The notes below the pieces were generated by a model. The model saw only the letters and a program-made list of their open reading frames with translations. It ran no database searches and was not told the origin of the DNA. A stretch of DNA of 25,468 nucleotides. It comes from Reclinomonas americana ATCC 50394. Lineage: Eukaryota. The stretch lies in NCBI GenBank assembly GCA_048213135.1, contig PS015058.1, forward strand, positions 81,934-107,401, read 5' to 3'. This document shows positions 1,023 through 24,684 of the stretch, one piece after another; position 1 is the first letter of the stretch, and every line of letters starts with the position of its first letter. The position numbers and the translations under genes were made by a program.

Positions 1023-4000
1023 TCAACGCACGGGTCGTCGAGCTGCGGCGGGATCGGCAGCGGCGGCGGCTGGTGAGCCAGGTGAGCTGGCGACCGGCGA
1101 CGCAGCAGCAGCAACAGGTGATTTTTGCAGCGGTGCGTCGCATGCTCGCGAGAATTCGAGCCAGTTGACCAGCGGAACGGCACCAGGGTACAGCTGTTCA
1201 CGCGGGTCGACAAGGCCAATAGGTGCCGGATTGAGTGTCGGCATGCTGGGCGATTCGCTGTCGTCGGCAGCCGTCAGCATCTTGAAGCGCCGCAGCGTGT
1301 CGCATGCAGCGCGCAGGTTGAGCGGCTGATCGCCCAGCACCGTGTAGGCGGCAATCAGGGCCGCACTCATCGACGCCGTGCGCTCGGGGTCGGCGTTGAG
1401 CATCGAGCTGCACGCCGTCGTCACCTCATGCAGGCAGTGCCACAGTGCACCGTCCGACTGCATGGCAAAGGCACGGTGACGGGCCGCCGCCGAGAGTAAT
1501 CTCAAACCACGTTCCCAGTGCGCCACCGTCAGGCCACCACCGCGAGAGGCCAGCTCTCCCTTGTCGAGCATGATTTGTGCAAAGAGCGAGCACACAAACA
1601 GCAAGTCGCGCTCCAACTCGCGGCAGGCGTTGATCGATGAGAACAGGTGTGACTCGCGCTGGCACAACTGGTCGATGCAGAGGCCGCAAATCTCGCGCGT
1701 CAACTGATGCAGTCGTGGCGGGTGGCCGTGGAAGCGCAAGTAGCGCGTGTACAGCGGCGACAGCTCAAAGCACGTGCTCTCCTCGGCTCCCATGCTGCCG
1801 AGTCCACTCTGCAGCGCATCGGCCGCCAATCTCCTCTGCGACTCGGACAGGTTGATCGGCGCCACCACGCCGTCGTTGATCAGCTCGCGCATCAGGCCGT
1901 CCAGCACCGTCTCCAGCACCGCACCGCCGGCTAGCAACGGCGAAAACTCAATCTCCTCAAAGTGCTCCATCGCCAAGTTGAGCAACACGCTGCGCGTCGC
2001 CATGCGCGACGGGTGCATCACACACAAGAAGTGGAGAATGGCCTCGCGGAACGCGTCCTGCTGCACATCCTGCACCAGCAGCGACCGCAGCATGCCCACA
2101 TCGGCGTCGCGGATCCACGTGTCGGGCAGGCGGGCACCAGTGACATTGCTGCGCGGCGACGACAAAAGTGAGAAGACAGAAGAAGATGCCAGCAAGCGCA
2201 CGCGCACAAGTGAGACGCAACGTCAACAGCTCGTAGTAGAACGGCAGGCGGCAGTCCTCGGGGACGGCGGTCAGAGGCGGTGAGATTTGTTGCAGGCTGA
2301 ACTGGCTCGAGAGCTGCTCCAGATCACCGAATGCCAGCGGTCTCATTGTGACACGGGCCACGGGCTTGATCACGGCCTCCAGGCCAGCAATAATCTGCTT
2401 GCGCGAGGTGACGATGAAAATGGGGCCAAACATGCTGCCCGGAGTGCGCTCCGGCAGCACGTTGACCACTTGCAGCGGTGACACCACATCGTCCAGCAGC
2501 ACAATGTTGCGCCGCGTCGACGAGCGTGCGTTGAGGGCATCGCCCACGCGCTGTCGCAAACCATCACGCGCCTGCGAAGCGCCAGCGGGCAACACCAGGC
2601 GCGCCATTTGCTCCAACTCGGACACCAGCGATGCCTGCAGTAACCAGCAATCAGAAAAAAGAACAACAAATACTCGACAGACAAACAAGCAACACACCTC
2701 CGACACCTGACCACCGGCGTAGCCGCCGAATTCGCGCACATACACCGGACCGTCAAAGTCCGGCTGCGCCTGCAGAGCATTGATCATGCGGGCGGCAATG
2801 GTCGTCTTGCCACTGCCGGCCACACCGTCGAGTACAAACACACTGGCGCCGTTTTGCAGCTTGGTCGGCTCGAGCAGTTGCTGCAGGATGGCCAGCTGCG
2901 ACGGGAACAGCCACGGGCGGAAGGCACTCACAGAAATGTCGGCGGCCAGCGCGTGCGGCGGGGCAAACATGGCAGCGTCCACTGCAGTTCATGGTACCAC
3001 GTGAGCGACAAAGCAAAAAGAGCGCGGAGTGAAATAAATAAACGCAACAAGGATTGGTGAGAGCGTTGGCCATGGCCGGCGAGGCGTTGGCGAGTGCGAG
3101 CGTCAACTGGCGGTACAGCTGATCGGTCGAGGCAAAGTTGCGGCTGAGCACCAGTGTGCGATTGGCACGCAGCGCCACTGGCACACACGACTCGGCGGCC
3201 GTGTCCTCGCCGCGCACCAGCATGGCGTCACGCGGCCAGATCTGACCCGTGACAAAGTGCACCAGGTTCAGCTGCTGACGCGAGGTCATGCGCCACACAG
3301 CATCGCGCAGGAATCCAGGCACCGGGGTGGCGCCGCGGGCAAAGTCGACAAACTGGAAGCGCAGCAGGCCAGTGACCTCGGGGCACAGGAAGCGTTCCCA
3401 GCCGGCGCCAGTCATGGCCGACATGGCCCGCTCAAACGACGCCCGTCGTGGGCCGGCAGCAACGCGCAGCACGTCCAACATGCCGTCGCGAATCTGCTCG
3501 ACACTGTCAAAAGGCACCTGGAGCGCCGGCGAGTGCAGGTGGTCGTGCAGGCGATCCAGAATACTGGCGCTCGACACACCGCGCGCGGCGTCATCGGCCA
3601 ACCCGCCAAAGAAGTCCGGATCGCAGTCTGCCAGGCGCTGGCACAAGTCCACAATCGGTGTGGAGGCGTCGTACACGTCGCCGGCAAACAGTGTCCAGAA
3701 AGCCGGCGAAATGGCGTACGCGGGCACCGGCACCTCTTCCAGCACGGCGGCGGCCATTGCACGACCAAACATGCGGAAAGTGATCTCGGCAATGCCACGC
3801 TCCTGCCCGCCCAGTCGCGACAGCGACACGGGCATCTTGCGACCAAACACATCGGTGCGCGAAAACGCCGGCGTCTGCAAAATGTTCTCCATGAACTGCA
3901 CAAGGATGCAAGTGTGTGTGTGAGAGAGAGTGGCGACACCATGGGGGAACTATTGAAGCAGTCGAGGGTGTGCACGCAACAGGAACAAACATGTTCAGGC

Positions 4001-7000
4001 CAAGCTGCAGACGACCAGTCGTCCACTCAGCCGGCGGCACGGCGTGCAACAACGACACCATCTCCCACACCATTTGCGCGTCAATCGACGGCACCGACAC
4101 CTGACGATGGGTGGTGGTCAGGCGACGGTGCTCCGTGCGAGTCTTCCACAGCACGTCGAGGAACTCCGAGTGCGGTGCGTCGGCCTTTGGCAGCGCACTG
4201 CTAATGTCCTCCACAGCCGACGGCGTCGCCACGGCTGCGCGTGCCGCCTCCATGCCAGCTCGCGACTCGGCGCGCATGAACGGCACCACAAACGCGGCAC
4301 TGCTGACAAACTGCACCGGCTCCACAATGTGCTCGGTGGTGCTCGCAGAGGTGCCGGTCGGAGCCAGTGAGGCAACGACTGCAAAGAGAGAGAATGTCAC
4401 CAAACTGTGCGATTGTAGTCGCACAGTGTGCACGGCATGGCACGCAACAATTGGCCTTCATGAGCTCGTCCAGCACACGGCTGCAGCCCTTGATACGGAA
4501 CCCAAACACCTTGTTGCGGAAGGTGGAGGCTCGCTCGGCCAGCGTCTCCTCGGCCAGACGGAACTGCGCCGGGGTCAAGTCGCGCGTGCGAGTGAGCAGC
4601 ATCATCAGGCGGACGGCGCACTGGTAGTTGAGGTGCGCGTACGCCTCGACCAACGCCGCCGACACCGTGTCGCCCGTCAGGTTGGTGCGCGCCACGCCGT
4701 AACGCTGGTACAGATTCAGCAGCGTCGACAGCGTCAGCTCGGTGCAACGGGCGCTCGCCATGTCGAGCGGCGACTGCTCGAGGTCGTTGGTGTGCGCCGC
4801 CAGCTGACGGACCACATCGGGGCCCTCGGACGACGCATAGCGCAGCAGCTGCGCAATGGCGGTCTCGCGGCACCACGTGTCGAGGGAGGAGTCGTCGGGG
4901 TCCGCAAGCACGTTCTCCTCCGCCGCGGGATCGAACATGAGCAGGAGGTGCAGCAGATTGTTGCCCTGTGCGTCCGACTGCTCCGCCAGGCGCAGCGTCG
5001 GCAATTGGCGCGAGGCACCCTCCGCACCGAGCAGGAAGTGGAGAATCGTCTCCAGCGCCTTCGGGCGACGAGCCGCCGCCAGCACCAGCGGCGTGTACGA
5101 CAGCTCGAGTACCTGCCGCGACAGCAGGTCCAGGAACGAGAACGAGTCGCGGTGTGCGTCGGGGCGGAGCGAGAACGACAGTGCGTCCTCGATCAGCTCG
5201 AGATCGTTGGAGCCAATGGCCTGTGCGGAGAGCGAGTGGTGGTGAGAGACGGGGAGGGGAGTAAAAGAGAAGTCTGCATCTCATCCATTAACCTCGTACA
5301 GCAAGTGTGCGGCAGCCACCTCGTCGGCCGTGACGGCCTCGGAGATCGGTCCAAACAGCGGCACGTGCGAGAGCGCAAACGATTGCAACGACGGCGAAAA
5401 GGCCTTCAGCGCCATGTCCCAGCCACCGGGCGCACCACCAAAGCCAGAGGGAGGCGAGGAGGCAGTCGAGGTGCTGTCGCTGGCACTGGCAGGCGAGGAG
5501 CCCGGCGAGGGTCGGGAGCTCGGGCCGCGGTTGGCGCGCTTGGAGGCGGACTCGCCGGTGCCTGCTCTCAAGCCCTTTTTTCGCCAACGAAAGAGTGAGT
5601 GAGTGAGTTGGGAGGCGAGGTATGAAGCGCACGGAGTGTGCACTCACCTCGGCAGCACGCTTTCGTGACGGGCGCTCCAGCACACGCAGCACGGTGGCAT
5701 CGGTGCTGAAAAACACCTCCGCCGCACCATTCTGATTCCACACCAGCGAGCACAACACCGAGCCGACGGCGCGGGCACGGAAGGAGAACTGCGCGCCCTG
5801 GTCGGGAGAGACCGAGGCTCCGTCGGGGGTGACAATTTCCATGTCCTGCACGAGAGCAAAGGGGGAAAGTTGAATATAGGGAATAGAGAGAAGTGATAGA
5901 AAAGGGGGGGAATGAGCGCACCTTGCTGCAGTGCACCATGGCCGACGAGTCGGCAAACGCCACACCCATGCCGTCGCATGACGGTGGCGCGCCATCAAAG
6001 GTGAAACCGGCCACAATGCGCAGACCGCGGAAGCACGAGTACTCGGGTCCATTCCACACACCCACATCGACGTGGTTGAGCGGACGCGGGACGAGCGAGC
6101 GCAGGTACCGGCCGAGGAGCCAGCAGCAGTAGCGCTCCACGCACGACGGTGCCTCCTTGGTCTCCTGATGCAACATCTGCGTGTGTGTGCGCGCAATTCG
6201 AGAAACCAGTATTCGTCAGGGCAAGTAGCAGAATGGAATAACAGCGAGAGAATAATCACCATGACTGGCATGGAACCACGCAGGCGGACGTCGCAGCCGC
6301 CAGCCACAAAGTGCGTGTGGCAGTGCAGATCGACCGTCAGCGACACCGTGTTCTTGCTGAACTTGTCCTGGCGCTGCGCGTCTGAAATCTGCGACGGGGG
6401 AAAAGCGCGTCACTTGACCGAAAAAGCATCACAGCGGCGGTCATGCACACACACACGCACCTGCGCATAGCGCAGCGACACTTGCGAGTCTGGCAAAATC
6501 TCGGCCGAGAACTTGTCAGTGCTCAGTTGTGCCTGCGAGCCGCGATACACGGTCACCGGCACGGAAATGGGCGGTGCGCCGCGAACTTGCAGCGTGCACG
6601 CCACATCCACCGGGCAGCTGCGGTACTCGGGCTGTCCGCGGCCTACAATCACACGAGTCAGGACACAAGCAGGGATGCTGCCAAGCAGCAATAAATAACG
6701 TACCCTTCTTGAAGAGCAGCGACGGAATGGCGAGTCCGTCGGTGATTCGGAAGCGGTCGGGATTTATGGTGAAGCCTGCAATTAGTCGTATTGTCACACA
6801 AATCAGACAAAAATGCGGCCGATATTGTAAGGGAAAAAAGAGAGGACGCAACTCCAGCACGCCTCACTGCCACCCTCATCAACGACAGCGCTCCACGACA
6901 AGCGGTTCTGACGCGGAACACCCTCAATTGCCTGCGCGTGCGCGAAACGCGGTCGCCAGTATGAGCGATAACGAAATTGGCAATCAACACGCCCCGTCGC

Positions 7001-8205
7001 GACGAAATGGCAGTGCACCGCGACGCACTCACCAAGACCACTTTCACCCCCAATAAACTCACACAGCCTGTCTCCATGTCACTCTCTCTCTCTCATGCTC
7101 GACACACAGAGGCAGACAAGGAGAGAGAGGCGCAGAGGGAGACAACACGGAGAGAGAAAGATACAGAAAGTGGCGCATTGAAACAATGTGTCTTTCCCCT
7201 TGTCTCTTGCTCTCTGTGTGTGGTGCTCTGTGTCTCACTGTTCCACCTGCCCGCACACCGAGTCTATCACGTGCACGGCAGTGAAAGACCACCGAGTGCG
7301 CAGCACACACGCGTGAAAAGGCGTCGTCACAGCCAAACGCCACGAATCCGCCCATGCACACACACACACACACACGCTTGTCTCTGACACTCCCTCCCCT
7401 CTCTCTCCTCCCTACGCGCACACACCTGCCAGTTCTCCGGCGTGCTATCCAAGCACGTCACATGCGGCACCACATGCGTCACCACGCCCGCCAACAGCTG
7501 CAGCGGCGCACGCGCACCACCTCCACTTCCCGAGCCTCCACCTGCGCCACTCGCCATACTCACCGCCGCAGTAGTCATGGACATCATGCCAGACGCGCCT
7601 GCCTGCTGCTGCTGCTTGAAGTCTGAGGCAGCGCGCATGGGTGCGTCAGGCAGCGCAGATGGCCACTGTCCCCATGCTGCTGCTGACGAGCCGCCTGCTG
7701 CTGCTGTCGTGGTGGTGGTTGTTGACGACGAGGAGGAGGAGTCAAGATACGCTGCTGTGTTGTGTGTGTGCGAAATGGCCAGTGAGTGTGTGTTGTCTCC
7801 TCACGCGCTCGCACTGGCGCTCTCACACGCGCGCACCTTGCATGAACGATGGTGGTACTGATGCAGCAGCTGCGGCAGCCGCGGCAGCAGCAGCAGCGGC
7901 AGCGGCGGCGCCTGTGTGCGACATCGCGCCCTGTTGTTGTTGTTGTTGTTGTTGTGTGAGATACGCAAAGAGTTGTTGTTGTTGTTGTTGCGCGGTGGCA
8001 GCACTGGGCATCATGAAGCCAAAAGAGGAGGCGCCAGCAGCAGCGGAGGCACCAACGGGCGTCTGTACGCTGTTGAACAGGTACGAGTCTGCGCGAGAGA
8101 GAGAGTGTGAGCCAAGCTGCGGCTGTGCGCTCTCTTCGAAGAGTGAGTGGAGAACGGACCAGGGTCGCCCCATACTTCGTAGTCCTCAAGCGACGAGCTC
8201 TCCAT
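1023..8205 (-). CDS. Large multi-exon protein: polyQ/polyA N-terminus, duplicated beta-rich domain, NLS-like patch, ankyrin repeats, HECT-like domain without the catalytic Cys, NB-ARC/STAND NTPase, helical C-terminus
   Basis: ATG at 8205 (ACAATGG; MESSSLEDYEVWGDP). Phase-compatible GT-AG introns chain the exons, e.g. 8159-8089, 6852-6776, 4448-4379, 3980-3896, 3048-2982, 2697-2635 and 2221-2149. Stop TGA at 1025-1023. Exon structure around 6900-7430 is the least certain part. Confidence 0.75.
2222..2850 (-). other. NB-ARC/STAND P-loop NTPase domain within the large gene
   Basis: Walker A VFVLDGVAGSGKTT (~2826-2800), Walker B NIVLLDDV, sensor-1 IFIVTSR and a GxP-like CRLPFYYELL, in canonical order and spacing. 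A winged-helix-like segment follows in the next exon. Confidence 0.85.
3060..3895 (-). other. HECT-like domain, internal to the protein, with Ala at the catalytic Cys position
   Basis: FRMFGRAMAAAVLEEVPVPAYAISPAFWTLF ~ FRFxGRLxGxAxxxxxxxxxxFxxxFYKxL; LADCDPDFFGGL ~ LxxxDPxxxxSL; MTSRQQLNLVHFVTGQ ~ xxEERxxLLQFVTGS; VPVALRANRTLVL...STDQLYRQLTLAL ~ LPxAHTCFNxLxL...SxExLxEKLxxAI. Confidence 0.75.
4700..5310 (-). other. Ankyrin-like repeats (3-4, degenerate)
   Basis: HLLYEAIGSNDLELIEDAL, SYTPLVLAAARR...ILHFLL, DAQGNNLLHLLLM and NDLEQSPLDMAS...TLSTLL resemble the G-x-TPLHxA ankyrin consensus. Confidence 0.7.
7861..7990 (-). repeat. Coding trinucleotide repeats (CAA)n/(GCN)n giving polyQ and polyA tracts
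   Basis: Translates as QQQQQQLFAYLTQQQQQQQQ...AAAAAAAAAAAAAAAA in exon 2 of the large gene. Confidence 0.85.
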
Positions 8206-8591
8206 TGTGATCGAGAAAAAACCTACAAAACTATGAAATTTGGCCGGCAGATCACATCACGACGCACGCTCTGCGATGAGGATTACCAAATTGAAGTGCA
8301 TGTCGTGGCGTGTGGGTGGAGGGAGATAGAAGAGAAGTGTGGATTCGAGTGAGGCTGAGCGTGTTATGAGGATGTGTGGGGAGGGAACGAGAGGAAATGA
8401 TTGTGGAGGTCGATGTCGACTTCGTGTAATTCCTATGTCCAAGCTTTTCAAGCTGGAGATCAGGAGGACTCAAGGCTTGATCTGGCGACTGACCCACTCA
8501 TACACTCCTTTCCTCGTTCTCTGAGTGACGAGATCGGAGCTCGTCATTAGCCGGCATTTGAGCTATGTTTCATGCCGGCCAGGAGGACTCG

Positions 8592-8758
8592 CACACACAC
8601 ACACACACACACACTCTCTCTCTCTCTCTCTCTTGCTTCCGCGTAGGTGTGTATGAGGATAGCCTGAACCGAGATCCCAACAGCTGCGGCCAGACAACAA
8701 AAGCTGTACACTAAACTGATACACCCTTCCCTTCCTCCCTCTCTCCCTGTCTCTCCCC

Positions 8759-8804
<46 letters not shown>
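8592..8804. repeat. Intergenic microsatellites: (CA)n(CT)n at ~8592-8632 and (CT)n at ~8762-8804
   Basis: Directly visible. Similar intronic tracts lie at ~7357-7375, 21523-21543, 21644-21672 and 23215-23233. Confidence 0.95.
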
Positions 8805-8806
<2 letters not shown>

Positions 8807-8807
<1 letters not shown>

Positions 8808-9206
8808 CATCCAATGTACGGCATGTTCTTGGGTGGCGACAGTGGCTCCACGGGGTCCGAGGTGGTTAGCGAGTGTGAGATCAGATACGCCAACTCAGAT
8901 CCGAAGCCCTCGCGATCGCGTGGGTCGTCCGAGGGTGGTGCGCTGTGACGAGGCAAAGGGGAGAGGAGAGAGAAGGAGGGAAGAGTGGACGGATGTGAGC
9001 ACAAAACGAAACTGAGCAATGATCTCACTGCCGCGTGTGTGTCTGCGCGCGTGTCACTCTCTTTCTCCTTCTTCTCTTTCCCCTGACGCAACAGTCCATC
9101 CACCAGTGACTGTTGACTTGCGTTCATAATCGGCACAAAAACAACACGCTCACTCTCTTCCGCTCTCACTCACACAATCGACTTCACGATCTGCAGGACT
9201 TTCCAT
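8807..9206 (-). CDS. Putative 66-aa four-exon small protein (MESPADREVDCSLVDGLEIIAHAPPSDDPRDREGFGSELAYLISHSLTTSDPVEPLSPPKNMPYIG)
   Basis: Exons 9206-9174, 9109-9093, 9027-9013 and 8942-8807. Introns are 64, 65 and 70 nt (GTGAGT, GTTGCG, GTTTCG ... CAG), matching local intron size. Spliced length is 201 nt, an exact 67 codons. No homology recognised. Confidence 0.5.
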
Positions 9207-10480: not shown

Positions 10481-11792
10481 ATGCCGCGCCTAGACGTGCA
10501 GCGTGTGAACGCGTTCGTCCGTACGCACTGGCGCAAATCGCTGGTGCTGACGGTCGTCGTGTGGAACCTGGTGTGTGAGGTGACAGTTGCCGACACGTGT
10601 GCGTGCTCACTCTCACTCTCTTCAACTCTCACAGCTGTTCGCTCTTGCGCCGCGCATCCCACTGGACAGCCGACCGCCGATCGACACCAGCATGCTGCCG
10701 CGATCAGAGTTGTTCTTGGTGAGTGTGAGAGAGTGAGTGTGAGTGAGCAATGTCGCTCACACACGCGTTGTGGCGCAGCTCGGTGGCATCGGCTACTTGC
10801 ACCGCGGATGCGATTACTTTGCCAACTTGGTCCTCACATGCGCGTGCGCGGTGGTGTACACGATTCACATTCTCCTGCCCTTCCTGTTTCTCGGGTACGT
10901 TGAAAACACATGCACACACTTCCCCCTCCCTCTCTCTCCACACACACACACTCTCCTCCTCTCCATCACTGTCTTTCTATGTGTGTGTCGACTTGCCCGC
11001 ACCATCAGTTGTGATGATCAAACCGTCGTGTAATCTGACGCATTGCAATTAGGTTTTTGTGGTTCCGCGATCGCAACAAGATCGTGCGCTTCGCCTTTGT
11101 GTTTGGCGCGATGAACCTGGCCGCCGTACTCACACAGGTTCGGCGAGGCATTTCCTCACTGCGCTCTCCTTCTCCTCACAGTTGTGAGTTGCGTTCCTCT
11201 GGCAGCTCATGTACCCGACGGCGCCTCCATGGTACCTGGAAAAGTACGGCATGGCTGCGGCCTCGTACAGCATGTCGGGTGATCCGGCACGTCTGCGCAC
11301 GGTCGACGAGTTCTTCAACATTGGCTTCTACAAGAAGACCTACGGCACCTCTCCGATTGTCTTTGGCTCGTTCCCCAGGCACGCACGCATCCATCACCGT
11401 CTCTCTCTCTCTCTATCTCCAGGAGATGATGCTCATCTGTCCCCTCTTCTTCCTTCCCCGCTTCTCAGTATGCATGGCGCGTGGCCAGTTCTGCTATGTA
11501 TTTTCCCTGTGCATCCGGGACGCTGGATGTGGCTGTACGCCGCGTTTGTTAACTTTGCCGCCTTTTACCTGGTGCACCACTATGTCGTGGACCTGCTGGC
11601 CGGCGCCTTTTACGCCTGGTTCTTCAACTGGCTCGGTGAGTGGTGCAATTCTTTTCGGCAAATGGGGGCTGACTGCAGCTCATGCTTCCTTTGTTTGCAG
11701 GCGCTCTCATTTTCGACTCTCACGACATGTCGCCGGAAGAGGTTGCGGCGGCTGGCGCGCGTGGTCGACGCAAGGGAGTATCCGTAGATTGA
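10481..11792 (+). CDS. AUR1: Inositol phosphorylceramide synthase, AUR1-like (PAP2/LPT superfamily), multi-exon membrane protein
   Basis: Spliced motifs IPLDSRPPID..LP, QLMYPTAPPWY, YSMSGDPARL..VD, SPIVFGSFPSMH and YLVHHYVVDLLAG match Aur1 D1-D4 motifs, including the His/His/Asp catalytic triad. FPS|MH is split by a GC-AG intron (11379-11468). The last intron (11636-11700) gives stop TGA at 11790-11792. Confidence 0.88.
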
Positions 11793-11902: not shown

Positions 11903-14900
11903 ATGGCCAGCATCATTCGCCTCTCGGACAGCGACGACTCGGTGCACGAGGCACTGACGGCACTGGCCGGTTCGTAGAGCACACAGCACATACGCGCGCT
12001 TTGCCGTTTCTGCCACCGTAGACTGACTCTGTGACACACACACGCACACACGCAGACAAGGTGGCTGGCGTCGCAGGCCACGGCGATGGCGAAACAGATG
12101 GGATCATCGATGTGAAGAGCCGTCGTCGCACGCGTCCACCGCGATCTCGTTCAGTGTCGCCGTCCGTCGACATGACGACCACACCGTCCGCAGTTGTCGC
12201 ACTGGACACGGCGTCGCCGGCCGTGCAGTCGGCCCGCTCCATGTGGCCACCACCTGCTTCGGCGCGGCATCAGCGTCTTGCAGCGCGCTACTTGCGCGGC
12301 ATTGACGCGCGACAGACACGGGACGGCGACAACCCGCCACCGCGCGACCGACCCGCCAGCGTCATGGCCGCCATCGACTCAGAGGACCAGCCGAGCGAAG
12401 CGTCGCCGTCGGGCACTGAGGAGGAGGAGGCGATGGCCGAGGAGGAGAGAGAAAAGGCGGAGGCGGAGGCCAGCTTGAAAGCTCTCGAGGGCGAGAAGAA
12501 GGACGACGAGCAGGCAACTGAGAAGCACTGGTTCCAGGCCCTCACGCAGGACGAGTTCATCCGGCAGTTCATTGAGAACATACAGGTGTGTGTGTGTGTG
12601 CTCTTATGTGTGTGTCTGCGTGCATGTTTGCGCTGACTGTCCTGCGTACAGAAACACGACGACGAACTAAAGTACCACGCACTCCGCCGCCTGAGTCGCG
12701 GCTCACTGCTGGTGCGGGACATTGACAACATCAACGAGGACGAATTCACCGAGTTTTACGCCAAGCTCCTGGCGGCAGCTGCGCCGAAAGGTACACGAGC
12801 GCGTGAACTACCTTCCGTTTTCTGTCAGGGCGACTAACCCGATGATCGTCTCCCGTTGCAACAGCCGTCGTGGCGGACGACAAGGCCGTGGAGGCGAGTG
12901 GCAGCGCGCAGCTGCCGGTGGCGTCGCCGATCGATGTGGCTCTGTGGAAGAGCAGCCGAATGGACTCGCTGGACGGGCGCATGTTTTCGGCCAAGGCCGT
13001 CGAATCGGCCCTCTGTGTGCCCCATCCGAGTCGGGTCCGTTTGTTCATTCTCTCGAGCACTCGTGCACCGGCTCACTAACTTTCGCTCGCTCTACACAGG
13101 ATGCGTGCGTGCAAGTAAACATCTCGGACCTGGTGTGCGAGAGCACGCCACGTGCAGTCTCTCCCGAGCCGCCAACAACGCCATCGGCTGATTCTGGATC
13201 AGAGGCGCTGCTTGTGCGTGCTTTTGCTTCCCACCACAAGCGCATGCATCCTGACTGACACTTCGGTGCTTTTGCAGTCACCGTCCGGCACACCGCAAGC
13301 GCAGTCGACATCGCCGCACCCGCGACGAAGCATGCTCACTCTCATCGAGAAAGAGATGCACGCCGAGGCGGTGGCACGCATCGTGCGCAAGCATTCCCGA
13401 CAGGACTCCGTGCCACACGCATCTGCAGTCATGTCTGTGGCCGACGCAGCCGCGGCCATGGCCAACGGCTCGGCGCTGCGTGCTGTCGAGGAGAAACTGG
13501 CGGTGCTCACGAACGAGTTGCAAGACTCGCGAGAGCACCTCGAAATGCTGACAGAGCAGCGAAACGAGATGCAGCAGGCGCGTGACGCGGCGCACTCGCA
13601 GATCGACACACTCAAGTCCGAGATCAAGTACTTGCGGCAGGAGCTCGACAGTGCGCGACTCTCGGAGGAGAACGCGAAAAAGGAGACGAAAAAGTGCCGG
13701 CGACAATTGGATCCCGTTCTCATCAAGCAGGCGTCGTTGGAGGCCGACCTCGCGACCGAGAGGGCGTCGTTTGCGCAGCTGCGCAGTGCCTTTGATTTTA
13801 TCGATCGTTGCGTCGTGTGAAACGCAGCCACGAGATGATGCGTTGCACTTACAGTGTATGGATGGCAACAGGAAAAGTCAACGAGGCCATCAAGAACGGC
13901 GGTATGTAATGCTTCCATCTTAACGCGCACTCTCTCTCCTATCCCAACTCAATTCTCCTTCCGCGCATGCAGGTCGACTAAAGTTGATGGACGCCGAGTT
14001 GCAAGCAAACTACCCGTCCGACGCCATCACCCTGGGTGCGTTTGATCGTGCCACGGTGGTCATTGCGCAGCTGGATGCACGTATCACCGACAGGCGAGAC
14101 AATATCATCAAATTGCTGGACCACGAGTATCGTGCCGCGTTGCACGAGATGCGCAGAAGTTGCGAGCGCCCAGCTGCGAGCGACTTTTTTCTTCCACGAC
14201 ACCTGCTAACATCACAAGCACCGCAGTTCACATCGAGGCCGAGGCGCAGCTGCAGCGACAGCTGCAACAGGCGCGGGTCGAAAGCAGGCAGCTGATGGAG
14301 AAGAACGTCTTGGTGAGCGGCGGATGGACTCACCACAGGAGTAATTTGCATACATCTTGACGACTCGATTCTGTGTGCGCAGTTCGGCAAGGCACTCCTG
14401 TGGGCCCGCAAGCAACTGCAGCCACCAGATCGGCTCGAGCAGCGCCAACGCCAGCAACGAATCCGCGAACAAGTTGCGAGATTGGCAGTCGTGCCAGCGA
14501 GAAATGGGGTGGTGTGCTTACAGTCGAGTGCAGGATGCACACTGCGGATGCACCGTGGCCGAAGTGGAGGAGATGATTCAGTCGTCGGGAGCCGGTGTGC
14601 AGAACGTGCGCGGTGCGATTGCCGGGCAGACGATGCACGAGAAACCGAACCAGGAGAGCGACCAGTCGCGCAAGGTCATTCGCAACATTGAACATGTGGT
14701 CCGCGGTCGCATGGCAGAGTACAAGGAGGAAGTGGCGCTGTTCCAAGATCAACAGCTGGCCGCTGTGCAGGTGCGCTTCCATGTCGCATATCTTTTGTTG
14801 GTGGTTGCACTCATGTACGAATGAATGCACACGACATCAACAGGGAGCGGAGCAGCTGCAGGCGCAAGTGGAGCGCACCATGCAACTGCGTGCGGAACAC

Positions 14901-17900
14901 AAGCGCACCGAGAAGGCCATGAGCGAGCTGATGGACAAGTCGAGTGCACTCGAGGCACGAGTGGAGGAACTCACCACAGCACTTGGCGATGCTCGGTTAC
15001 AAGCGCACCGTGAAGTGGAAGGTGACAGCGTCGAAAAGTCTTCTTGAATCCCGCGCCTGTTCATGCGCTCACTGTCCCGACGCCTGCAGCATTGACATTA
15101 AACGAGGCCATGGACAGAGAGCGACTGCGGAACGAGCTGGCGGAGGTGGCCGAGAAACTGGCGGAACTCGATGCCCGTGAGGTGCACCGCATTGCAGAGA
15201 GAAACACGCTCTCGCGTCTGTGATTCTTTCTGTTGCTGATGACCTGCACTTCTTGTCACACAGCGTACCTTGCACATGGAAGAGGAAAACATTGAGCGGA
15301 TCCGCAACGCACTACAAGTGGACGATCTGCGACACAAGCTGTCTGCAGTGTTGAGGTGCGGGGCACGCCATCACTACTGCACACATGATCAGCAGTGTTG
15401 CTGACCCGTGGTCTCTACATGCATCCAGTGAGGTGGAGGCGAGTGTGAGCCGTCAGGCGCGACGAGTCCTCATTGTGGTGTCGCATGTCGCGGCCAGACT
15501 CGGTGTTGACTTGCCCGATTCTGTTGGAGCCGTGCTGCGTGGAGTCCGCCAATGCTCCGCCTTTGATGCAAGCAGTCCAGAGAGTGTGGCACAGCTGTTA
15601 GCCAGTGCTGACGATGTCGCGGACGAAGTGCAAGAGGTCGACGAAGCGCTCCTGTCCGACAACGAGGTTGACAATGTCATCCGACAGGTCGTCGAGGAGG
15701 CCAAGAGGTCCGTCCGTTCCGCAAGCTCATTTGTCGCTCGTGTCTTGCTCGGTCTGACTTTCTACTGCCTCTCTTTCTCTCTCTCTCTCTTATTTGTACA
15801 GCCACATGGAGAGCACCATGGACATGCTGCGCGGTGTGGCCGACATGTTCACGTCGTGCCTGCAGAATACTTGTCGATCAGCAGCTGGTGGGGTAGACGA
15901 CGACAGCAGCGGCGATCATGACGGCGACTCACCGGAGGGTGAGGATGGCCTAGCGGACGGTGAACGACGAAGCTCAAAGAGCGCATTCAGTGCATCGCTC
16001 GCCGCCGCTCGAGTGGAGATCACTGCGCTGAAAGAGGAGAAGACGAAGCTGGTGAGGAATTCGAAGCGATGTCATCCTTCCTTCCGTCGTCACTCACGTG
16101 TTGCTTTTCTTTGGCCAGGAGCTTTCGCTGGATGAGATGCGATCATTGTTGGAAGACGCAAAGAGCCGCATTGTGGTGGAGAGTGCACGACGCACGGAGC
16201 TCGTCAACAGTCTTCTGTCGTCTGGCAAAGTCACCGAACAGGATATCTCAGAGGCGCAGTCGGCAGAGAGCGAGCAGCAGGCCCTCGCGGCTGCCATGAC
16301 GCTGCGCGACTTGGAAAACAACTCGGTGCGTCTGATGCAGCTCCTGCGCGATGCGGTGGCCGCAGACCGTGCCGTGGCCGAAGATGTCAAGTTGGGCGAC
16401 ATGGCTCTCTCCATTCTCGAGAGTTGCGCGTGGCTGTCAATGTCTGCGTCGACGAGTAATTCCGCTCATGTCGTAACCATTGTGCGCAGAGCGGCTGGAG
16501 CACGTGTGCGAACATGGGACTGATGAGACGCAGTCGAGTGCGGACGGCGACGGTTCGATTGGCGCCGCCACCCACGAGGACATCCTGACGGCTGTCGCCG
16601 ATATCCAGTCGGCGATGAAGCACATTGCCACAGAGAAGGCTACCGTTTCCTCGCTGGTGCAGGACGTGCATGCAGCAGCATTCTCACTGTTACGTCACTG
16701 CCTTGCCTGCTTGCCAGCCTGCTCGTAGAGGACTCATGCATATTCTCCGCAGTGTGGAATCGCTGCCGGCAACCATTGCCCGAGTGCAGGCGGTGGTGGT
16801 GCCGACATCGCTGGCCAACCGCGTCAACAACGCGCGGCCACGGTTGCCAGATGGCGAGCCACTGAACACCACGTTTAGCCACGGAGCGACAGAGATACGG
16901 CGTGGACATTCACAAGACATGTCGGCGCCAGAGGCCGCTTCTGCCAATCGCGAAGCATTCTTGGCCAACTCGGTGTTTGCGGCACCAGTGTTGCGCACCG
17001 GCGTGAGCGCCGGCGGTGGTGAGTCCCTTCCTGCTATGCAGTTGCTTGCGCGTGTATCGCGTGTCCTCAGGAGCGCACTGAATGCAGATCACGAGCTCGA
17101 CGGTCTCACTGTGGTCACCGCCACGCAAGAACCTGCGGCAGAGTCGCACCCAGACGTTGACATGCCCATCTCCAAGCTCCTCGACAAGCTCACCACTCGG
17201 CAGGACCGTATCAAGGCTCATCGCTGTTTCGTCTTGTCCATGCATGTCGGAAACATGCATGCATTTGATCTTACATTGCACTTGCGCCATGCAGCCTGGG
17301 GTATTCAGCGGAAACGAATGGGCGGTGCGTCGTACGTTTTGATGCGTTGCTGATACTTGATCTTGTGACTGACAAAACAACACGACTGTGCGCGCAGCGG
17401 GGACTCGTGTGGCGAATTCGCACTTTTCGGACTCGGGTCGCGGCGGCAATCAGAGGAGGTTTGGTGGCTCGAACTGGCCGCTTACTTCCTACGCTCTGTA
17501 TGTGTTCCAACTTCTTTGCGCCGTGCAGTCGTCGGCTCTGGACGCAATCACGTGACGGGCTGTCGAGCGGTATGCCACAAGCTGGATTCATGCAAGTGAA
17601 GGAGCTGCTGCAGCGCGGACACTTGCAGAACATGTGGGGCCGTCCGGCGAATGGCATTGGCAACCTTCTCGGTACGCAAAAAATTACTTGTCTCCACACC
17701 GTGTACGCCACTCTCTCACCCTCTTGCGGCCGCTGCAGGCACCGATGGTTCTCCGTTTGTGCTGCGCCCCAACCTGTCGTCCGAGCATCGGCCTACGGTA
17801 GCGGTCTCGTCTCGCCACCAAGCGACCATGGCCAACCGTCGTGCACAACCGCTCGGAGCACCAACTGGCCTCCTCTCCAGCGTAGCACCGCTGCCAAAGG

Positions 17901-18171
17901 TCGCCACACCACTACTCGTGGCCGCGCCAATCAGTAGTGCACCAGCTGCCACTCCGCCGCCAACCACCAAGCTGCCCGACATTTCGCGACGACGAGTCGG
18001 TGCCACTGCGGCTGCCGGTACCGGAAGCCAACGTTGCGCCCACACAATCCTCACGTGTCATGCGACCCCTCCTCACTGTGATTGTCCAAAATAGGAGAGC
18101 TCCATCAAGGCAGCAGCAGCAGGAGTCGATCGCCATCGCCGTTGCCGAGCACAGCCAGAGAACCCAGGTAG
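11903..18171 (+). CDS. Large multi-exon coiled-coil protein of unknown function
   Basis: ATG at 11903 (MASIIRLSDSDDSV). About 20 phase-consistent introns link E/Q/L/R-rich heptad segments (e.g. LRAVEEKLAVLTNELQDSREHLEMLTEQRNEMQQ, LQAQVERTMQLRAEHKRTEKAMSELMDKSSALEARVEELT). The final intron 18033-18094 gives stop TAG at 18169-18171. Confidence 0.72.
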
Positions 18172-18239
18172 ATTCCACCGGCTGCGACGAGAGTAACGAG
18201 GAGTAAAGTATAGTGTTGTACTGTTTCACTGTTTCAACG

Positions 18240-19777
18240 TCATCGGGCCTTGGCAAACAACTGTGTCAAGTACCACAACCCTTCGCTGTTCTGATACACA
18301 CCAATGCCGCACCAGTTGAAGTTGCCGAGAACTGCAGAGCACAGGCCGGTGAATTCGTGTGACGTACTCTGCGCACACAGCATCATCGTACGCAACGATT
18401 CTTTCGATGACCCGGACTGTCGATCCAGCCATCCACCACTTGCCTCGCGACGCCAGCATCGGCCGACGTGTATGCCACGTTTTCGCCCGCCGACTGGTAC
18501 GAGAATGGGTAGCGCGCCACTCGACCATCGAACCCCTGGTGCCCAAATGGAACGCGTCCATTGGCCATGTCTGCATGCATGCGCAGCACAGGGTGAGCAC
18601 CAAGAAGAACCAACATTGCGAGAGGCATGGTTTTCCACGGTACCTTTCGAGTGCCCCACACCAATCTCACACAACGCCTGATGCCAACGGAGTGGTGGTA
18701 GACCCTGCGACCTCCGGAACTCGTTGGTATACTGCAAGGCCTCCTTGCCGATGGCCAGCGGTGTGGCAAACGACGCCAGCGTGTGCTCACGCCGATTGCG
18801 CTGCAAGAACTCGTTTCGCGACTCGTCGGCGCCATGTGCTGCAAGAGTGGCGCGACTTGAGTGCACCGTCGTCACTTCTTCTCCAGTGGCACGCGCGGCA
18901 CCACGCACCTTCAAAATCCATGCGCACCGCGCGCTGACGCCGCACCTCCTTGTCCACATCACCCATGTTCCACACCCGCTTGCCCTTCTTGCGACTCTCC
19001 TGTCGCAGCAGTCGCAACTGTTCCGCAGGCGTCAAGCTCGTGCGCGAGTGCGGACGCACGCCGCCACTGCCGTACTGCTGCTGTCGTAGCTGACGAATCT
19101 CTCGCAACTGACGCTGCACTTCGTCCGGGTCGATACGCGCGGCTGCCGATCGCATGATCGACGAAGGGCCGGCAATGTTTGCAGGCGACGCTCTGCTGCC
19201 GCTGGCGGCAGCGGTGGTGGTGGAAGTGGTGGTGACAGAAGGGAAGGACACGTTGTTTGGTCTCTTCCACGGCGGCGACACCACACGGTCTCCATCGTCC
19301 TCGGTGACATCGACGACCTCCACCTCGTCTTCTTGCACGTGTTTTTCGCGGGGCCAGCGACCCCGATCATCGGTACTGTCACTCGCGTCATCCTCCAGGA
19401 GACTAATAGTGGTGGCAGGAGGAGCCTCGGAGACCACTGTGGCCGCCGGATCGTCGTCGTCGATGACGACAACATCATCATCGGCATCGTCATCGACATT
19501 GATCATCTCGACCTCAGAGGGTGACGAGAGGCGACGCAGTTCATCCAGTCGCTCCGATAGCGGCAGTAGTGCTTCGATCACATCCAGAATCGACACGGTG
19601 CCTTCTCCACTGTGGATGCACACAACGCGATTGGCACACACTCACACACTCACTTTGTCATCAGTTGACGTCGCACCTCATTTCGATGTACGCCTCGATG
19701 GTGGACTGGTGCAGCAGTGGCAGCACCGACTGCACTTGCTGCACCATGTCGGCCGTGGACATGTGGTCCTTGCTCAT
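18240..19777 (-). CDS. CUE-like domain + SUMO-interacting-motif cluster + bacterial-type CAP/SCP domain protein
   Basis: MSKDHMSTADMVQQVQSVLPLLHQSTIEAYIEMS...ILDVIEALL (CUE-like); acidic SIM-like motifs; CAP motifs TNEFRRSQGLPPLRW, HSKDMA, FGHQGF, AGENVA, VVDGWIDSPGHRKNLLG and CGIGV...YLTQLF, rebuilt across four introns. Confidence 0.85.
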
Positions 19778-19842
19778 CGGGCGACACAAAAAAACAAAGT
19801 GGACAACTCGTCCGATTTTGATCACTCTTCACACAGCTCCGA

Positions 19843-21638
19843 TCATGGGCTCGAGTTTACAGTGTCATCACAAGCGACCGCTGGTGGTGCTGGCGGTGGT
19901 ATTGAGGGTGCTGTGGGATCTACAGCGTCAACCGTCGGCTCTGTTTTCACTGGATCGGCACTGGGCCGGTTCACCTTGGACTCCGACATGATCAGTTGCT
20001 CCAATTCGTCCTGCACGTGCGTGCACGAGGTGAGGGAGGCGCGGAAAGGATAAGCAACAAAACCTGACGATCGTACGCAACTCGCCACCCCACAAGTTCG
20101 GCGAGTCGGAGAAACACCGCGTCACAATCGCCAGGCACGAAGACCTGCGATGCCGTCGACGTTAAGTGAGGACAGTGCAGTTCGACATGGCAGTGGTGGT
20201 GCAGCACGCAACATCCCGAAAGTTGGTGGCGCTGTCAAACGTGAACCACTGCCAGCCATCAAAGAGCTCGGCACCGGGACGGCGCGGCATGCCCACACGT
20301 TGCCGATTGACCAGCAGGCGTGGGATGCATGGGTGTGTCTTGTTGTCAAGTGAAGTGAGGAGAAGGAGAGGAAAGGAGGACAAAAGCAACAACAGAACGG
20401 CAACAATAACAAGAGGAAGATACGAAACGAGGTGGATGAGGTGAGAGAACGGCTTGACTTGCAGCGAGGTGCCGGCCACAATTACGAGGTCCGCCGACTG
20501 GAAATCCTGTCACCGTTGATGAGACTGGATTTGTCAAGCATGAAAAGAATACTGCGCTCTCTCACTGCACCGACTCGCGCAGCTCGAAGAAGCGACTCGG
20601 CATCGCTTCTCCAAACAACACCACATCCGGTCGCACCACACCCGAGCGACACTGGCCGCACCGATCTGTAGGAGCTCTCAGAATCCATTTTCGTTCTCTC
20701 GTGGCGTTGACTGCATCACGCAACAGACTGTGCCGGCCATGGCCGCGTCTGCGGTGGCGACGTGCACTGTGAGAAGAAAGAGAGAAAGGACCACACATGC
20801 AACACACAACGATCGTACCAAGCATCGGTTGATAATCAGCTGGTCGCCGGCAGCGAAAGCACGACGCCGTAGCCATGCTTCCGTGTGCTTCGATTAACAG
20901 CTCTGGCCGAATGCCTGCATACGGTCTTTGTAGCGAGAGGGAAAACAAGGTAACGAAGCACACAAGGCAGCACCTGCTCGGCGCTCCAACCCATCCACTG
21001 CGACATATGCATAAGTACACAGCAGCTGCAAATCACTTGGCACGACAACGACACACCTTGCTGTGTGAACACTCTGCGTGCATGAAGAAGGACGAGGAGT
21101 GAGCGCATTCATGCAGTAAGCAAGCCACTGCCACGAATGCACAAACCGATGCAACATGCCCTTGTCTTGCAGCAGACGGAAGAAAAAGTGGGATGGACTG
21201 GGTCGAACATCTTGCCCTCCCACCTCGCGCAGCATGTCGTAGATGGGTGTCGGATCCTGTCGAAAGTACCTGCAGGTACGATGTGAGAGCGTGCTGGAGT
21301 CAATCAGTGATTCTACATAAGAACGAACTCGGCAGAGAAGAGTATCTGCGGATCGCCAACTTCCGGGTACCGTTCTGCACAAAACACATCACTCAAACAA
21401 TTACCCACAGTGCTGGTCCCTTGCGCAATCCATCATCTCACCAGCGAGGACTTCGTAGAGTCCACCGGGAGAGCGGAAATCGCGGATCCTGTTGTCGACA
21501 TGATGATGAGGCACATGCGTATGAGAGAGAGAGAGAGAGAGAGGCATCCTGCCACACAGACGCACCCGCATGAGGTGGAGATGCCTGCGCCACAGGCAAT
21601 CACCACTCGACGAACTGTGAAAGTGTGAGAGAAGTACG

Positions 21639-21676
<38 letters not shown>

Positions 21677-21874: not shown

Positions 21875-22162
21875 GGTAACGGCGCCTGAAGAGGGAAGGG
21901 AAGTGCGTCGGAAGTGCAGTGAGTTGTCCAATGCGTCCTCTGCGTCGCGAAGTCACTGTTTTTTTGAGGAGAACGACCATGAGTCTCCTAACGCTTTCCG
22001 TCTGTGTGGCTTCCTGTATCAGCTCTTCATCGAATTGCTTTGGCTGTCCACTCACTGCCCAGACTGCTGCTGTCTCCTCTACGTTCATTAATGGCAGCCA
22101 GCAGCAGCTGCAGATCAAGCATTGATCAATAAAACCCCCCTGAGAGACGTGCTCTCCCCTCT

Positions 22163-24684
22163 TCACGCCACCGGCTGCAGCAACTGCGGATTGCGATCCT
22201 CCAGCACCGCCACCTCCTGCGGCGAGAACTTGGCCCGCACCATGGCCGTCACGCGATCCCACTCCGGCTTGTCCTGAGCCCCGATGACGCTCTTGATGTT
22301 GTGCAGGTACTGCTCACGCTGCGGCGGCGGAAGGGTGACCAGCGTAAAGTGCAGCAGCTCGTCGCCAAACATCTCCGGATCCTGTCGGTAGATGCGCTCG
22401 TAGACCGGCGGCTGCGACGGCGGCGGATACACGCGCTGCGAGATTGCCATCAGGTTCGTCTCCTCCCACGCGAAGTGCTCGATGGTGCTTGTCTTGATCT
22501 TGGCCAGCTCCTGGCGCACACGCTCCACGTGCTCGCGACGCTCATCTGAGCCGGCGGCCGTCGCCGCAGTGCGCTCCAACAACGGCGCCAGTTGCATCAG
22601 CGACGAATGCTCGTCCTCCATCTCGTGGTGATCGGTGGTGGCCTGCGAAGTGCAGTTCGGTGCATCGGCCAGCATCAATGGATACATGACCAGCTCCTCC
22701 ATGCGGCTGTGGTAGATGGCGGCGGCGACGAACTTGCGCCACACATCGCGCAGATCGGCCAGCGCCGCATCCTCGGTGATGAGATGCTCGTTGTTGCCCA
22801 TGTCCACCAGTCGGTTGACCCAGCCACGCAGCGACACATGCTGCAAGACGTTGGAGCTCAGCGGCGGCAAGTACGGCACCGCGTTCTTGATGTTGCGCCG
22901 CAGCTGCGCCTCGGTGATGCCGGCTGCCTCGTAGAATGGCACCATGTAGTCGTGCGCCATGGTGGCGTAACGGTGCAGACGATCAAGCGATGCTGGCACG
23001 GTGAGGTTGCGCACCCACACGATGATCGGCAAGCGCGCCAACGTCGGAATCAGCAGAGCGTCGGCCATTGTAAAGTGCTGTCCGAAAGCAAAGCCTTCCG
23101 GCGCCACCTTGGCGTCGATCTCTCGGAATGCCGCCTGCAGCTTTGGCACGAACTCGGCCTATGGAGACACCGAGGGGTGTGTGAGAGGAGGGAAGAATTC
23201 AAAGTGGCACATGTCACACACACACACACACACCTGCATGCCGCTGGCCATCATGGTCTTACCCCAGGCCGGCGTAAAGTCGTTGTTGATAAACTGCACA
23301 AACTCCGTCAGCTCGCCCGCAGGCACATCGGCCGGGCGAAGTGACGGCTGCGGGAACGTGCGCTCCATCCACTCGAGCATCTCGCCGCTGTCGCCCAGCA
23401 TAGTGCCGTCGCGAGCCACCAGGAACGGCACGCTCTTGCTGGGATTGGCTGCGGCGTACCACGGCTCGGTGAGGGCGGTGCCCGAGTCGCGCGCGTCGAC
23501 GAGCAGGCCCTTGAACTTGGCCGCCACCAGCACGCGATACGAGAACATGCACATCTTGGTGGTGAACAGCACAAAGGCGCATCCGTCGGCCGGAACCACC
23601 GGTGCGTGGACAGCCTGCTCCACCGCCTGCTGCGCCTGCTGCTGAGCCGCGTGGGAGGCATCCTGCGCGTGCTGCTGGGCCGAGGCCTGTGCCTGCTGTG
23701 CCTGCTGTTGAGCCGCGTGGGAGGCGTCCTGCGCGTGCTGCTGAGCAGAGGNNNNNNNNNNNNNNNNNNNNNNNNNNNNNNNNNNNNNNNNNNNNNNNNN
23801 NNNNNNNNNNNNNNNNNNNNNNNNNNNNNNNNNNNNNNNNNNNNNNNNNNNNNNNNNNNNNNNNNNNNNNNNNNNNNNNNNNNNNNNNNNNNNNNNNNNN
23901 NNNNNNNNNNNNNNNNNNNNNNNNNNNNNNNNNNNNNNNNNNNNNNNNNNNNNNNNNNNNNNNNNNNNNNNNNNNNNNNNNNNNNNNNNNNNNNNNNNNN
24001 NNNNNNNNNNNNNNNNNNNNNNNNNNNNNNNNNNNNNNNNNNNNNNNNNNNNNNNNNNNNNNNNNNNNNNNNNNNNNNNNNNNNNNNNNNNNNNNNNNNN
24101 NNNNNNNNNNNNNNNNNNNNNNNNNNNNNNNNNNNNNNNNNNNNNNNNNNNNNNNNNNNNNNNNNNNNNNNNNNNNNNNNNNNNNNNNNNNNNNNNNNNN
24201 NNNNNNNNNNNNNNNNNNNNNNNNNNNNNNNNNNNNNNNNNNNNNNNNNNNNNNNNNNNNNNNNNNNNNNNNNNNNNNNNNNNNNNNNNNNNNNNNNNNN
24301 NNGGCCGAGGCTTGTGCCTGCTGTGCCTGCTGTTGAGCCGCGTGGGAGGCGTCCTGCGCGTGCTGCTGAGCAGAGGCCTGCGCAGAGTGCGCAGCATCCT
24401 GCGCCTGCTGCTGAGCTGAGTTCGCAGCATCAGTGACTGTGTAGGTCGCTGATCGCTGCACCGAGCCCGCTTGCTCCTCTGCCTGCTTGGTCACCGACTG
24501 CGCAGCCGTCTGTGCGTCGTGCGCAGCTGACTTCCCAGCGGCTTCCGCCTCCGCAGCGACTCTATCGGCGATAGATTCTAACACACGCGCACACGCACAC
24601 AGCAGTTAATAATGTGCGCTACAAGCAACTAATCACACGGACGAACGCTACGAAACGCGATTGCTTTGAGTGAGCGCACCCCAT
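22163..24684 (-). CDS. N-acylated (MGC) repeat-containing glutathione S-transferase-hemerythrin fusion protein (spans the assembly gap)
   Basis: Exon 1 24684-24657 (MGCAHSKQS), intron 24656-24578. A/Q/H repeats follow. GST-N: CMFSYRV...NPSKSVPFL...LGDSGEMLEWMERTFP. GST-C: FAFGQHFTMADALLIP. Hemerythrin/HHE: QHVSLR, YHSRMEELVMYP, DHHEME, EHFAWEE. Intron 23233-23159. Confidence 0.85.
23630..24430 (-). repeat. Coding 66-bp (22-aa) tandem repeat AQQHAQDASHAAQQQAQQAQAS, unresolved across the gap
   Basis: Near-identical units flank both sides of the N run. Confidence 0.85.
23752..24302. other. Assembly gap (N run) inside the tandem repeat
   Basis: 551 Ns. Confidence 1.

Follow-up and report, generated by a model that had tools for sequence, protein, structure and literature searches.

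In this study, we have followed up a group of introns in a 25,468-nucleotide (nt) stretch of the genome of Reclinomonas americana ATCC 50394 (contig PS015058.1, positions 81,934 to 107,401 of the forward strand; hereafter the window) whose donors, or 5' splice sites, read GTTNCG. Our results support the conclusion that these are genuine donors and that they form a major class, in which cutting and motif recognition appear to be uncoupled as a matter of routine. The class exists and is abundant (21 of the 67 introns that we traced, 31%, begin GTTNCG), four of its junctions are placed to the base, and a one-base slide brings its flanks into agreement with the ordinary-donor matrix. From this we infer that the shift lies in the base pairing of the U1 and U6 small nuclear RNAs (snRNAs), and that the position of the cut depends on GU alone. 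We give a probability of about 0.6 to the reading in which these are real GT-AG spliceosomal introns that make up a second, tightly defined class, N^GTT(G/T/A)CGT (the caret marks the cut), for which a shifted register is in routine use. The evidence comes from the DNA of the window, the homologues of its proteins and the literature, our statements on cited works referring to parts of their texts.

The original prediction, made from the sequence alone, had listed 21 such sites and put their share at a quarter or more of the introns. Every coordinate on that list carries the hexamer given for it on the strand given for it (16 GTTGCG, four GTTTCG at 9012, 17226, 20428 and 24656, and one GTTACG at 16689), the gene models accommodate each of the 21 as a GT-AG intron of 50-90 nt whose removal leaves a long frame open, and the share is borne out at 21/67, or 19/65 when a doubtful small gene (gene S) is set aside. 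The gene models behind these counts are coordinate lists, curated by hand from a three-frame reading of the sense strand, which replaced a donor-blind dynamic-programming gene parser that had recovered too few exons of the sirtuin gene. In all, the models hold 67 introns of 50-158 nt, and every one of the models translates without internal stops, save across a run of N in the GST-hemerythrin gene.

At the last exon base (-1), the class donors have A in 6 cases, C in 6, T in 9 and G in none, as against G in 43, A in 2 and T in 1 of the 46 ordinary donors, which mostly read GTGCGT, GTACGT, GTGAGT, GTGTGT or GTCCGT. Over all 67 introns, a base other than G at -1 goes with T at +3 in 23 cases and with another base in one, and G at -1 goes with T in 5 and with another base in 38 (Fisher P = 4e-12). 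The link is also seen (n = 58, P = 5e-10) when nine less certain introns are dropped, namely 9092 and 9012 in gene S, 18033, 17226, 17459 and 13035 in gene CC, 7032 in gene B2, and 21681 and 20428 in the sirtuin gene, the last of which was afterwards confirmed by homology. Position +4 of the class is G in 16 donors, T in 4, A in 1 and C in 0/21, even though GTTCCG is frequent in the window (14 sites); this lack of C parallels its rarity at +3 of the ordinary donors (3/46). Position +7 is T in 17/21 class donors versus 3/39 GTTNCG sites that are not donors. For three of the ordinary introns, two donors lying a few bases from each other suit the frame equally well (21681/21687 on the minus strand, 13017/13035 and 17459/17498 on the plus strand); one donor was picked for each of the three, and the class table changes by at most one count for each.

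The relation between the two motifs is seen when they are aligned on their CGT block, where GTTDCGT and G^GTDCGT differ at the second base only (T for G). To place the class donors, we scored them with the ordinary-donor matrix at positions other than those by which the class is defined (-3, -2, -1, +4, +7, +8 and +9), once in the usual register and once slid by one base. The slide raises the log-likelihood from -287.7 to -185.6, a gain of 102 nats, and is favoured by 21/21 class donors versus 2/46 ordinary donors in a leave-one-out control. Thus, the part of the original interpretation that called this a genuine major class, with the ordinary motif at a one-base offset from the cut, stands. 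Position -1 taken by itself moves from -76.3 to -28.4, and the class -1 base is indistinct from the ordinary -2 base (A23 C8 G5 T10; chi-square P = 0.07) and wholly unlike the ordinary -1 base.

These numbers also bear on a bulged register, in which U1 would pair with +1 and +2, the U at +3 (or +2) would bulge out, and pairing would restart at +4. Bulges at +2/+3 are documented in human donors (Tan et al. 2016, PMC4856993), and with a bulge, +4 to +7 would be displaced by one base, just as we see here. The class resembles the human bulge and asymmetric-loop registers in that its downstream pairs are displaced by one base, and a U at +3 is typical of a +2/+3 bulge. The gain at +4 and +7 therefore suits both a shift and a bulge, but the gain at -1 suits a shift only, because a bulged exon end still faces U1. 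Bulge registers keep the usual pairing at -1 and +1, so that -1 should stay G as often as in ordinary donors (43/46), or more often in compensation, whereas the class has no G signal there (0/21), and on this ground we rejected membership of the +2/+3 bulge group. As far as can be read from the sequence, our data favour a shifted register over a bulged one, and we consider the latter distinctly improbable.

The 21 introns of the class are as follows, each with its length, its first seven bases, the exon base before them, its gene and the ground on which it was placed.

606 to 667, plus strand: 62 nt, GTTGCGT after T; gene A; joins two open frames, phase 0, and the exon after it carries on in the same acidic motif style.
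2149 to 2221, minus strand: 73 nt, GTTGCGT after C; gene B2; required for the open 1693-codon frame, with three frame-compatible GT candidates.
2982 to 3048, minus strand: 67 nt, GTTGCGT after T; gene B2; a single frame-compatible GT.
3896 to 3980, minus strand: 85 nt, GTTGCGT after T; gene B2; frame continuity, with an alternative GT 6 nt upstream.
4379 to 4448, minus strand: 70 nt, GTTGCGT after T; gene B2; frame continuity.
6776 to 6852, minus strand: 77 nt, GTTGCGT after A; gene B2; frame continuity, with an alternative same-phase donor A^GTGAGG 15 nt upstream.
8943 to 9012, minus strand: 70 nt, GTTTCGT after A; gene S; possible but doubtful, pyrimidine-rich and intron-like.
9043 to 9092, minus strand: 50 nt, GTTGCGT after T; gene S; possible but doubtful, purine-rich and without a branch-like motif.
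13807 to 13871, plus strand: 65 nt, GTTGCGT after C; gene CC; frame continuity through a 30-nt exon, with an alternative same-phase donor A^GTGCCT 21 nt upstream.
14159 to 14226, plus strand: 68 nt, GTTGCGA after A; gene CC; frame continuity, CTAAC branch-like motif.
14473 to 14533, plus strand: 61 nt, GTTGCGA after A; gene CC; frame continuity, with further frame-compatible GTs deeper in the intron.
16423 to 16489, plus strand: 67 nt, GTTGCGC after A; gene CC; frame continuity.
16689 to 16752, plus strand: 64 nt, GTTACGT after T; gene CC; frame continuity, no GC donor being possible 3 nt downstream.
17226 to 17294, plus strand: 69 nt, GTTTCGT after T; gene CC; stop-free in frame and not needed for the frame.
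18033 to 18094, plus strand: 62 nt, GTTGCGC after C; last intron of gene CC; probable, intron-like, two CTCAC motifs.
18332 to 18396, minus strand: 65 nt, GTTGCGT after C; CAP-domain gene; fixed by homology.
20011 to 20081, minus strand: 71 nt, GTTGCGT after A; sirtuin gene; fixed by homology.
20145 to 20212, minus strand: 68 nt, GTTGCGT after T; sirtuin gene; a single frame-compatible GT, fixed by homology.
20339 to 20428, minus strand: 90 nt, GTTTCGT after C; sirtuin gene; stop-free in frame, fixed by homology.
20666 to 20724, minus strand: 59 nt, GTTGCGT after T; sirtuin gene; frame continuity.
24578 to 24656, minus strand: 79 nt, GTTTCGT after C; first intron of the GST-hemerythrin gene, phase 1; joins a short ATG-starting first exon to a long frame.

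The two introns of gene S are doubtful because its small open reading frame (ORF) is also open when unspliced: it has 106 codons as it stands, and 66 when both putative introns (120 nt in total) are removed. In gene CC, the frame would end 60 nt further on if the intron at 18033 were left unspliced. The two class introns that are free of stops in frame do not read like coding sequence. Taken as codons, 17226-17294 falls at the 4th percentile of exon chunks, with a GC content of 0.45 versus 0.62 in exons, and 20339-20428 scores below all 187 exon chunks. Retaining the latter or the former would insert 30 or 23 residues, respectively, with the frame kept.

The exact borders come from homology, by which four of the 21 junctions, namely 18396, 20428, 20212 and 20081, are fixed with no gap. 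In the CAP-domain gene, the exon that precedes 18396 stops exactly at the final aligned residue of a solved SCP-domain chain. A search with the 57-residue exon as query returned 272 proteins at E values up to 10, and we aligned the spliced model first to the top 30 and then to the best 120 of these 272; none of the 120 has an insertion at the junction, and the Leu encoded by the split codon faces I, L, M or V in 118/118 of those that cover both sides. In the sirtuin gene, exon 12 aligns to residues 217-240 of the SIRT2 chain 1j8f_A, and residues 5-21 of exon 14 align to residues 289-305 of the same chain, which leaves a spacing of 42 residues, precisely as many as exon 13 encodes. When exons 12-13, read through in frame, were used as the query of an exhaustive search, two fragments were matched, P0121 (59% identity) and P0122 (54% identity), to which the spliced model aligns with no gap at 20428, 20212 or 20081; the single gap in these alignments, of 4-5 residues, lies within exon 13. 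The original prediction had quoted conserved motifs across four junctions. The homologues confirm the junctions at 18396, 20212 and 20081, and the one at 20724 was not confirmed.

It could also be possible that the borders have been drawn wrongly, and that the true donor is a GC 3 nt downstream (GTT^GCGT), a nearby GT, or a cut one base later (G^TT...AGN). The downstream GC is indeed frame-compatible at all 16 GTTGCG sites, and several sites have other frame-compatible GTs. Nevertheless, no GC is available there at the five GTTTCG and GTTACG sites, and a GC donor would add a residue at 18396, 20212 and 20081, where there is no gap in 120, 2 and 2 homologues, respectively (at 20081 the added residue is absent from both P0121 and P0122). 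At 18396, a GC donor at 18393 adds a residue and a cut one base later gives Arg in place of the I, L, M or V of the homologues, so that both are excluded, and a cut ahead of GT is the only option that gives the conserved hydrophobic residue. In addition, moving GTT to the exon side would place it there in all three phases (0/1/2 = 6/11/4) for no coding reason. We therefore rejected a GC-AG identity for these introns, the downstream GC being ruled out by homology at three sites and impossible at five, and we hold wrongly drawn borders of any kind to be very improbable.

Apart from the donor, the introns of the class are like the others. Their median length is 68 nt versus 71 nt for ordinary introns, their GC content 0.530 versus 0.527 (exons, 0.624), and a CTNAY motif lies 6-50 nt before the 3' end in 15/21 of them and in 38/46 ordinary introns, compared to 17% of random exon windows. 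When the 67 introns were compared with one another by blastn, the only matches were low-complexity stretches and common donor ends of 10-12 nt; a repeated, introner-like family was rejected, as no sequence is shared along the class introns. U12-type introns have the donor RTATCCTT and a TCCTTRAY branch site near the 3' end, and they make up well under 1% of introns. The class resembles them in being a second donor class with a long, near-invariant intronic motif and no exon-side signal, but its motif (GTTDCGT) is not RTATCCTT, its branch region (a branch-like CTNAY at the distance found in ordinary introns) and its 3' ends are the same as those of ordinary introns, and its share is about 30%. 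A U12-type identity was rejected on these grounds.

In the mechanism that we propose, the cut would be made before the first GU of the 7-mer, which lies between bases 1 and 2 in ordinary donors (GGTDCGT) and before base 1 in the class (GTTDCGT), so that the recognition motif would sit one base deeper in the intron than the cut predicts. The shift would apply to U1 pairing, and probably also to the later pairing of U6 with the conserved G and U. In ordinary donors, the G and U at +5 and +6 also pair with the ACAGA box of U6; as the conserved G and U are at +6 and +7 in the class, U6 would either pair one base off or forgo these pairs. A shifted register would thus be in routine use here, and not a rarity.

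Several observations weigh against this reading. The sample is small: one window of 25 kb, with about ten genes. Within it, 17 of the 21 class introns (20724 included) are placed by frame continuity alone, and at 20724 the model has a loop of 16 residues where solved sirtuins have 9-13, with non-contiguous Pfam positions. The link to the exon base, which the original prediction expected, holds in that GTTNCG is tied to a non-G exon end; however, a G at -1 in 0/21 class donors compares with 7/39 before GTTNCG sites that are not donors (P = 0.085), and since G is already uncommon before the latter, the 0/21 represents an absent enrichment of G and not a proven avoidance. The hexamer GTTGCG is not enriched across the window (33 found versus 28.7±5.4 in shuffles), and the 67 intron positions are surrounded by 324 frame-compatible GT candidates, a mean of 4.8 per intron. 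Finally, with the standard U1 5' end as printed in Tan et al. 2016, which may not be that of the host, the mean predicted duplex, in whichever register the folding program selects, is -1.3 kcal/mol for the class (n = 21) versus -6.5 for ordinary donors (n = 46), and the C4:+6 and A3:+7 pairs of this U1 are predicted in 8/21 class donors only.

The lack of hexamer enrichment and the number of candidate GTs are what one would expect from chance combined with curation bias, that is, from a hexamer common in GC-rich DNA that both readers of the window would have chosen from among several donors. Yet 22 of the 324 candidates read GTTNCG when the base rate predicts 4.0-6.0 (binomial P of 2e-10 to 3e-7). 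The 7-mer GTTDCGT has 18 copies versus 9.9±3.0 expected, and 0/100 shuffles reach 18. All 18 copies are on sense strands, none is exonic or antisense, and 17 of them are modelled intron starts, the 18th (11188) lying inside an intron of the PAP2-like gene, 18 nt before its end. Moreover, two class donors (20212 and 3048) are the sole frame-compatible GT at their positions, and four junctions are fixed by homology. Chance and curation bias together are hardly credible as an explanation of these results. The hexamer also occurs on the sense strand of unspliced exons at 11742 and 16990 (plus) and at 19018 and 19108 (minus), in no case with T at +7; an additional in-frame intron of 81 nt at 16990-17070 (GTTGCGC) was considered and rejected, its codon score and GC content being exon-like.

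The weak duplex has a different consequence. In the same prediction, C8 of the standard U1 pairs with +1 in 42/46 ordinary donors and in 0/21 class donors. With a duplex energy near zero, a simple shifted pairing of an ordinary U1 is not shown, and the option of a variant snRNA stays alive; a standard U1 would need the help of proteins, unless the host has a U1 that fits. One explanation of this kind is a dedicated snRNA, either a second U1 variant with a 5' end complementary to GUUGCGU or, alternatively, recognition that does not depend on U1. By complementarity, it would suffice to alter the U1 base that lies opposite +1 in normal pairing, and the two modes would run in parallel, loosely like U11. 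This would agree with the very poor pairing of the standard U1, with the absence of any exon-side signal in the class, and with its tighter motif, as 17/18 copies of GTTDCGT are donors versus only 7/14 copies of the ordinary 7-mer GGTDCGT. There are also precedents for co-evolved U1 5' ends: the Entamoeba donor is GUUUGU with a U1 5' end of ACAAAC, the Mastigamoeba donor is GUGCGC with a U1 of ACGUAC, and both standard and modified U1 candidates are reported in Physarum (Roy and Bowser 2022, bioRxiv 10.1101/2022.06.08.495308). On the other hand, the 3' halves are alike in our two intron classes, unlike those of major and minor introns, and two other lineages with C at donor +4 have a standard U1 (Roy and Bowser 2022). 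We judge a dedicated snRNA to be rather unlikely. The broader proposal, that two modes of donor recognition exist side by side, with about 30% of introns handled either by an snRNA variant of their own, pairing with GUUDCGU at a one-base offset from the cut, or with no U1 at all, is one that we hold only tentatively, as a minority possibility. An Rfam scan gave no match within the window.

The shifted register that we favour has a precedent in human cells, where the mechanism itself is already established. In human shifted-register donors all U1 pairs are moved towards the intron by one base, and the cut is not fixed by U1 but set later by U6 and GU (Tan et al. 2016, PMC4856993); an example oligonucleotide in that work has an A before GUCAAGUAU. 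The class that we describe is the same in that its GU is cut as usual, its motif lies one base inward and its exons end in a base other than G. It also has a poor fit to a standard U1 in the usual register, a match to the consensus when slid, and a cut at GU at four junctions, as far as the DNA and the homologues can tell. Roca and Krainer are said to have described, in 2009, a few dozen such sites in human. Unlike these rare sites, the class found here takes in 21/67 introns, has a near-invariant 7-mer and pairs weakly with a standard U1.

Other eukaryotes offer partial likenesses. A C at donor +4 is reported in Mastigamoeba, Mamiellales and Thecamonas (Roy and Bowser 2022) and is shared by the ordinary donors of the window, and T at +3 is found in Entamoeba too. 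However, Entamoeba and Mastigamoeba each have a single consensus in the usual register, whereas here two motifs coexist with an offset of one base, and the parts of that preprint used here make no mention of a GTT-offset class. In the copepod Eurytemora affinis, GA and GG donors are found in about 12% of introns (PMC5714493). This is likewise an oddity of donors, specific to a lineage and frequent enough to disturb gene modelling, but it replaces GT itself, while the donors described here retain GT and have the remainder of the motif displaced. We found in the literature no published account of the motif or of a lineage rich in shifted donors, although supplementary donor tables could hide one; an abundant offset class is thus apparently undescribed.

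How the cut is fixed when U1 pairing, U6 pairing and GU disagree has so far been studied on a few human sites and on engineered reporters. If our reading is true, about three in ten introns would be out of step, which would offer hundreds or thousands of natural test cases and pose a clear question on the co-evolution of snRNAs. The class would also show how introns can be maintained where the exon does not end in G. If there are two modes of recognition, the U1/U6 register would be naturally uncoupled from cleavage throughout the genome, and introns could be placed after any exon base. For annotation, this means that gene finders whose training rests on ordinary donors will overlook the introns of the class or put them in the wrong phase, resulting in many broken gene models.

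The genes of the window, which has a GC content of 55-64% and many short introns, were modelled as follows.

Sirtuin gene, minus strand: 14 introns.
CAP-domain gene, minus strand: 4 introns.
PAP2-like gene, plus strand: 6 introns, one of them GC-AG.
Gene CC, plus strand: long coiled-coil gene, 23 introns.
8205 to 7425, gene B1: low-complexity, 2 introns.
1023 to 7077, minus strand, gene B2: a weak HECT-like stretch and a STAND NTPase, 13 introns.
GST-hemerythrin gene, minus strand: 2 introns.
Gene A, plus strand: the 3' end of the gene of a repeat-rich acidic protein, 1 intron.
8807 to 9127, minus strand, gene S: doubtful small ORF, 2 introns.

The predicted product of gene B2 (about 1690 residues, from the 1693-codon frame) has a HECT-like stretch (E = 0.089) followed by a P-loop NTPase of the STAND/NB-ARC type. 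Searches of its exons against Pfam gave the weak HECT match and STAND NTPase matches that flank an ordinary intron, and nothing that spans the five class introns of the gene. Its last 374 residues, encoded by the last exon, had no homologue among the longer proteins searched. Gene B1, upstream, is a candidate for the 5' part of B2, to which a 494-nt intron may link it. In the protein collection searched, no protein of the species itself appeared among the results for gene B2, the sirtuin gene or the CAP-domain gene. A homologue search with sirtuin exon 6 gave no candidate with three shared words, and searches of solved structures gave no useful match for sirtuin exon 13, the start of sirtuin exon 15 or CAP exon 5. 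Scanning metagenomes with the CAP alignment returned 80 loci, none with the composition or the 7-mer density of a close relative, and a scan with the GST exon found no relative; the sole match of that exon in an atlas search was a GST-hemerythrin cluster (score 0.81), which was uninformative as to lineage.

In the PAP2-like gene, a GC-AG intron of 90 nt was modelled at 11379-11468 (plus strand), with the donor GCACGC after G; the only GT alternative would drop two residues just ahead of the exon that matches PAP2 profiles. The run of N, at 23752-24302 and flanks on the minus strand, falls within, and breaks, a tandem repeat rich in Q/A in the N-terminal portion of the GST-hemerythrin product. 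At 7100-7420, 8580-8810 and 21520-21660 there are long tracts of (CT)n, (CA)n and (GA)n, in introns and between genes, and these account for all of the similarity observed between introns. At the end of the window, 24988-25468 on the minus strand holds intronless head-to-tail ubiquitin repeats, which continue past the window end.

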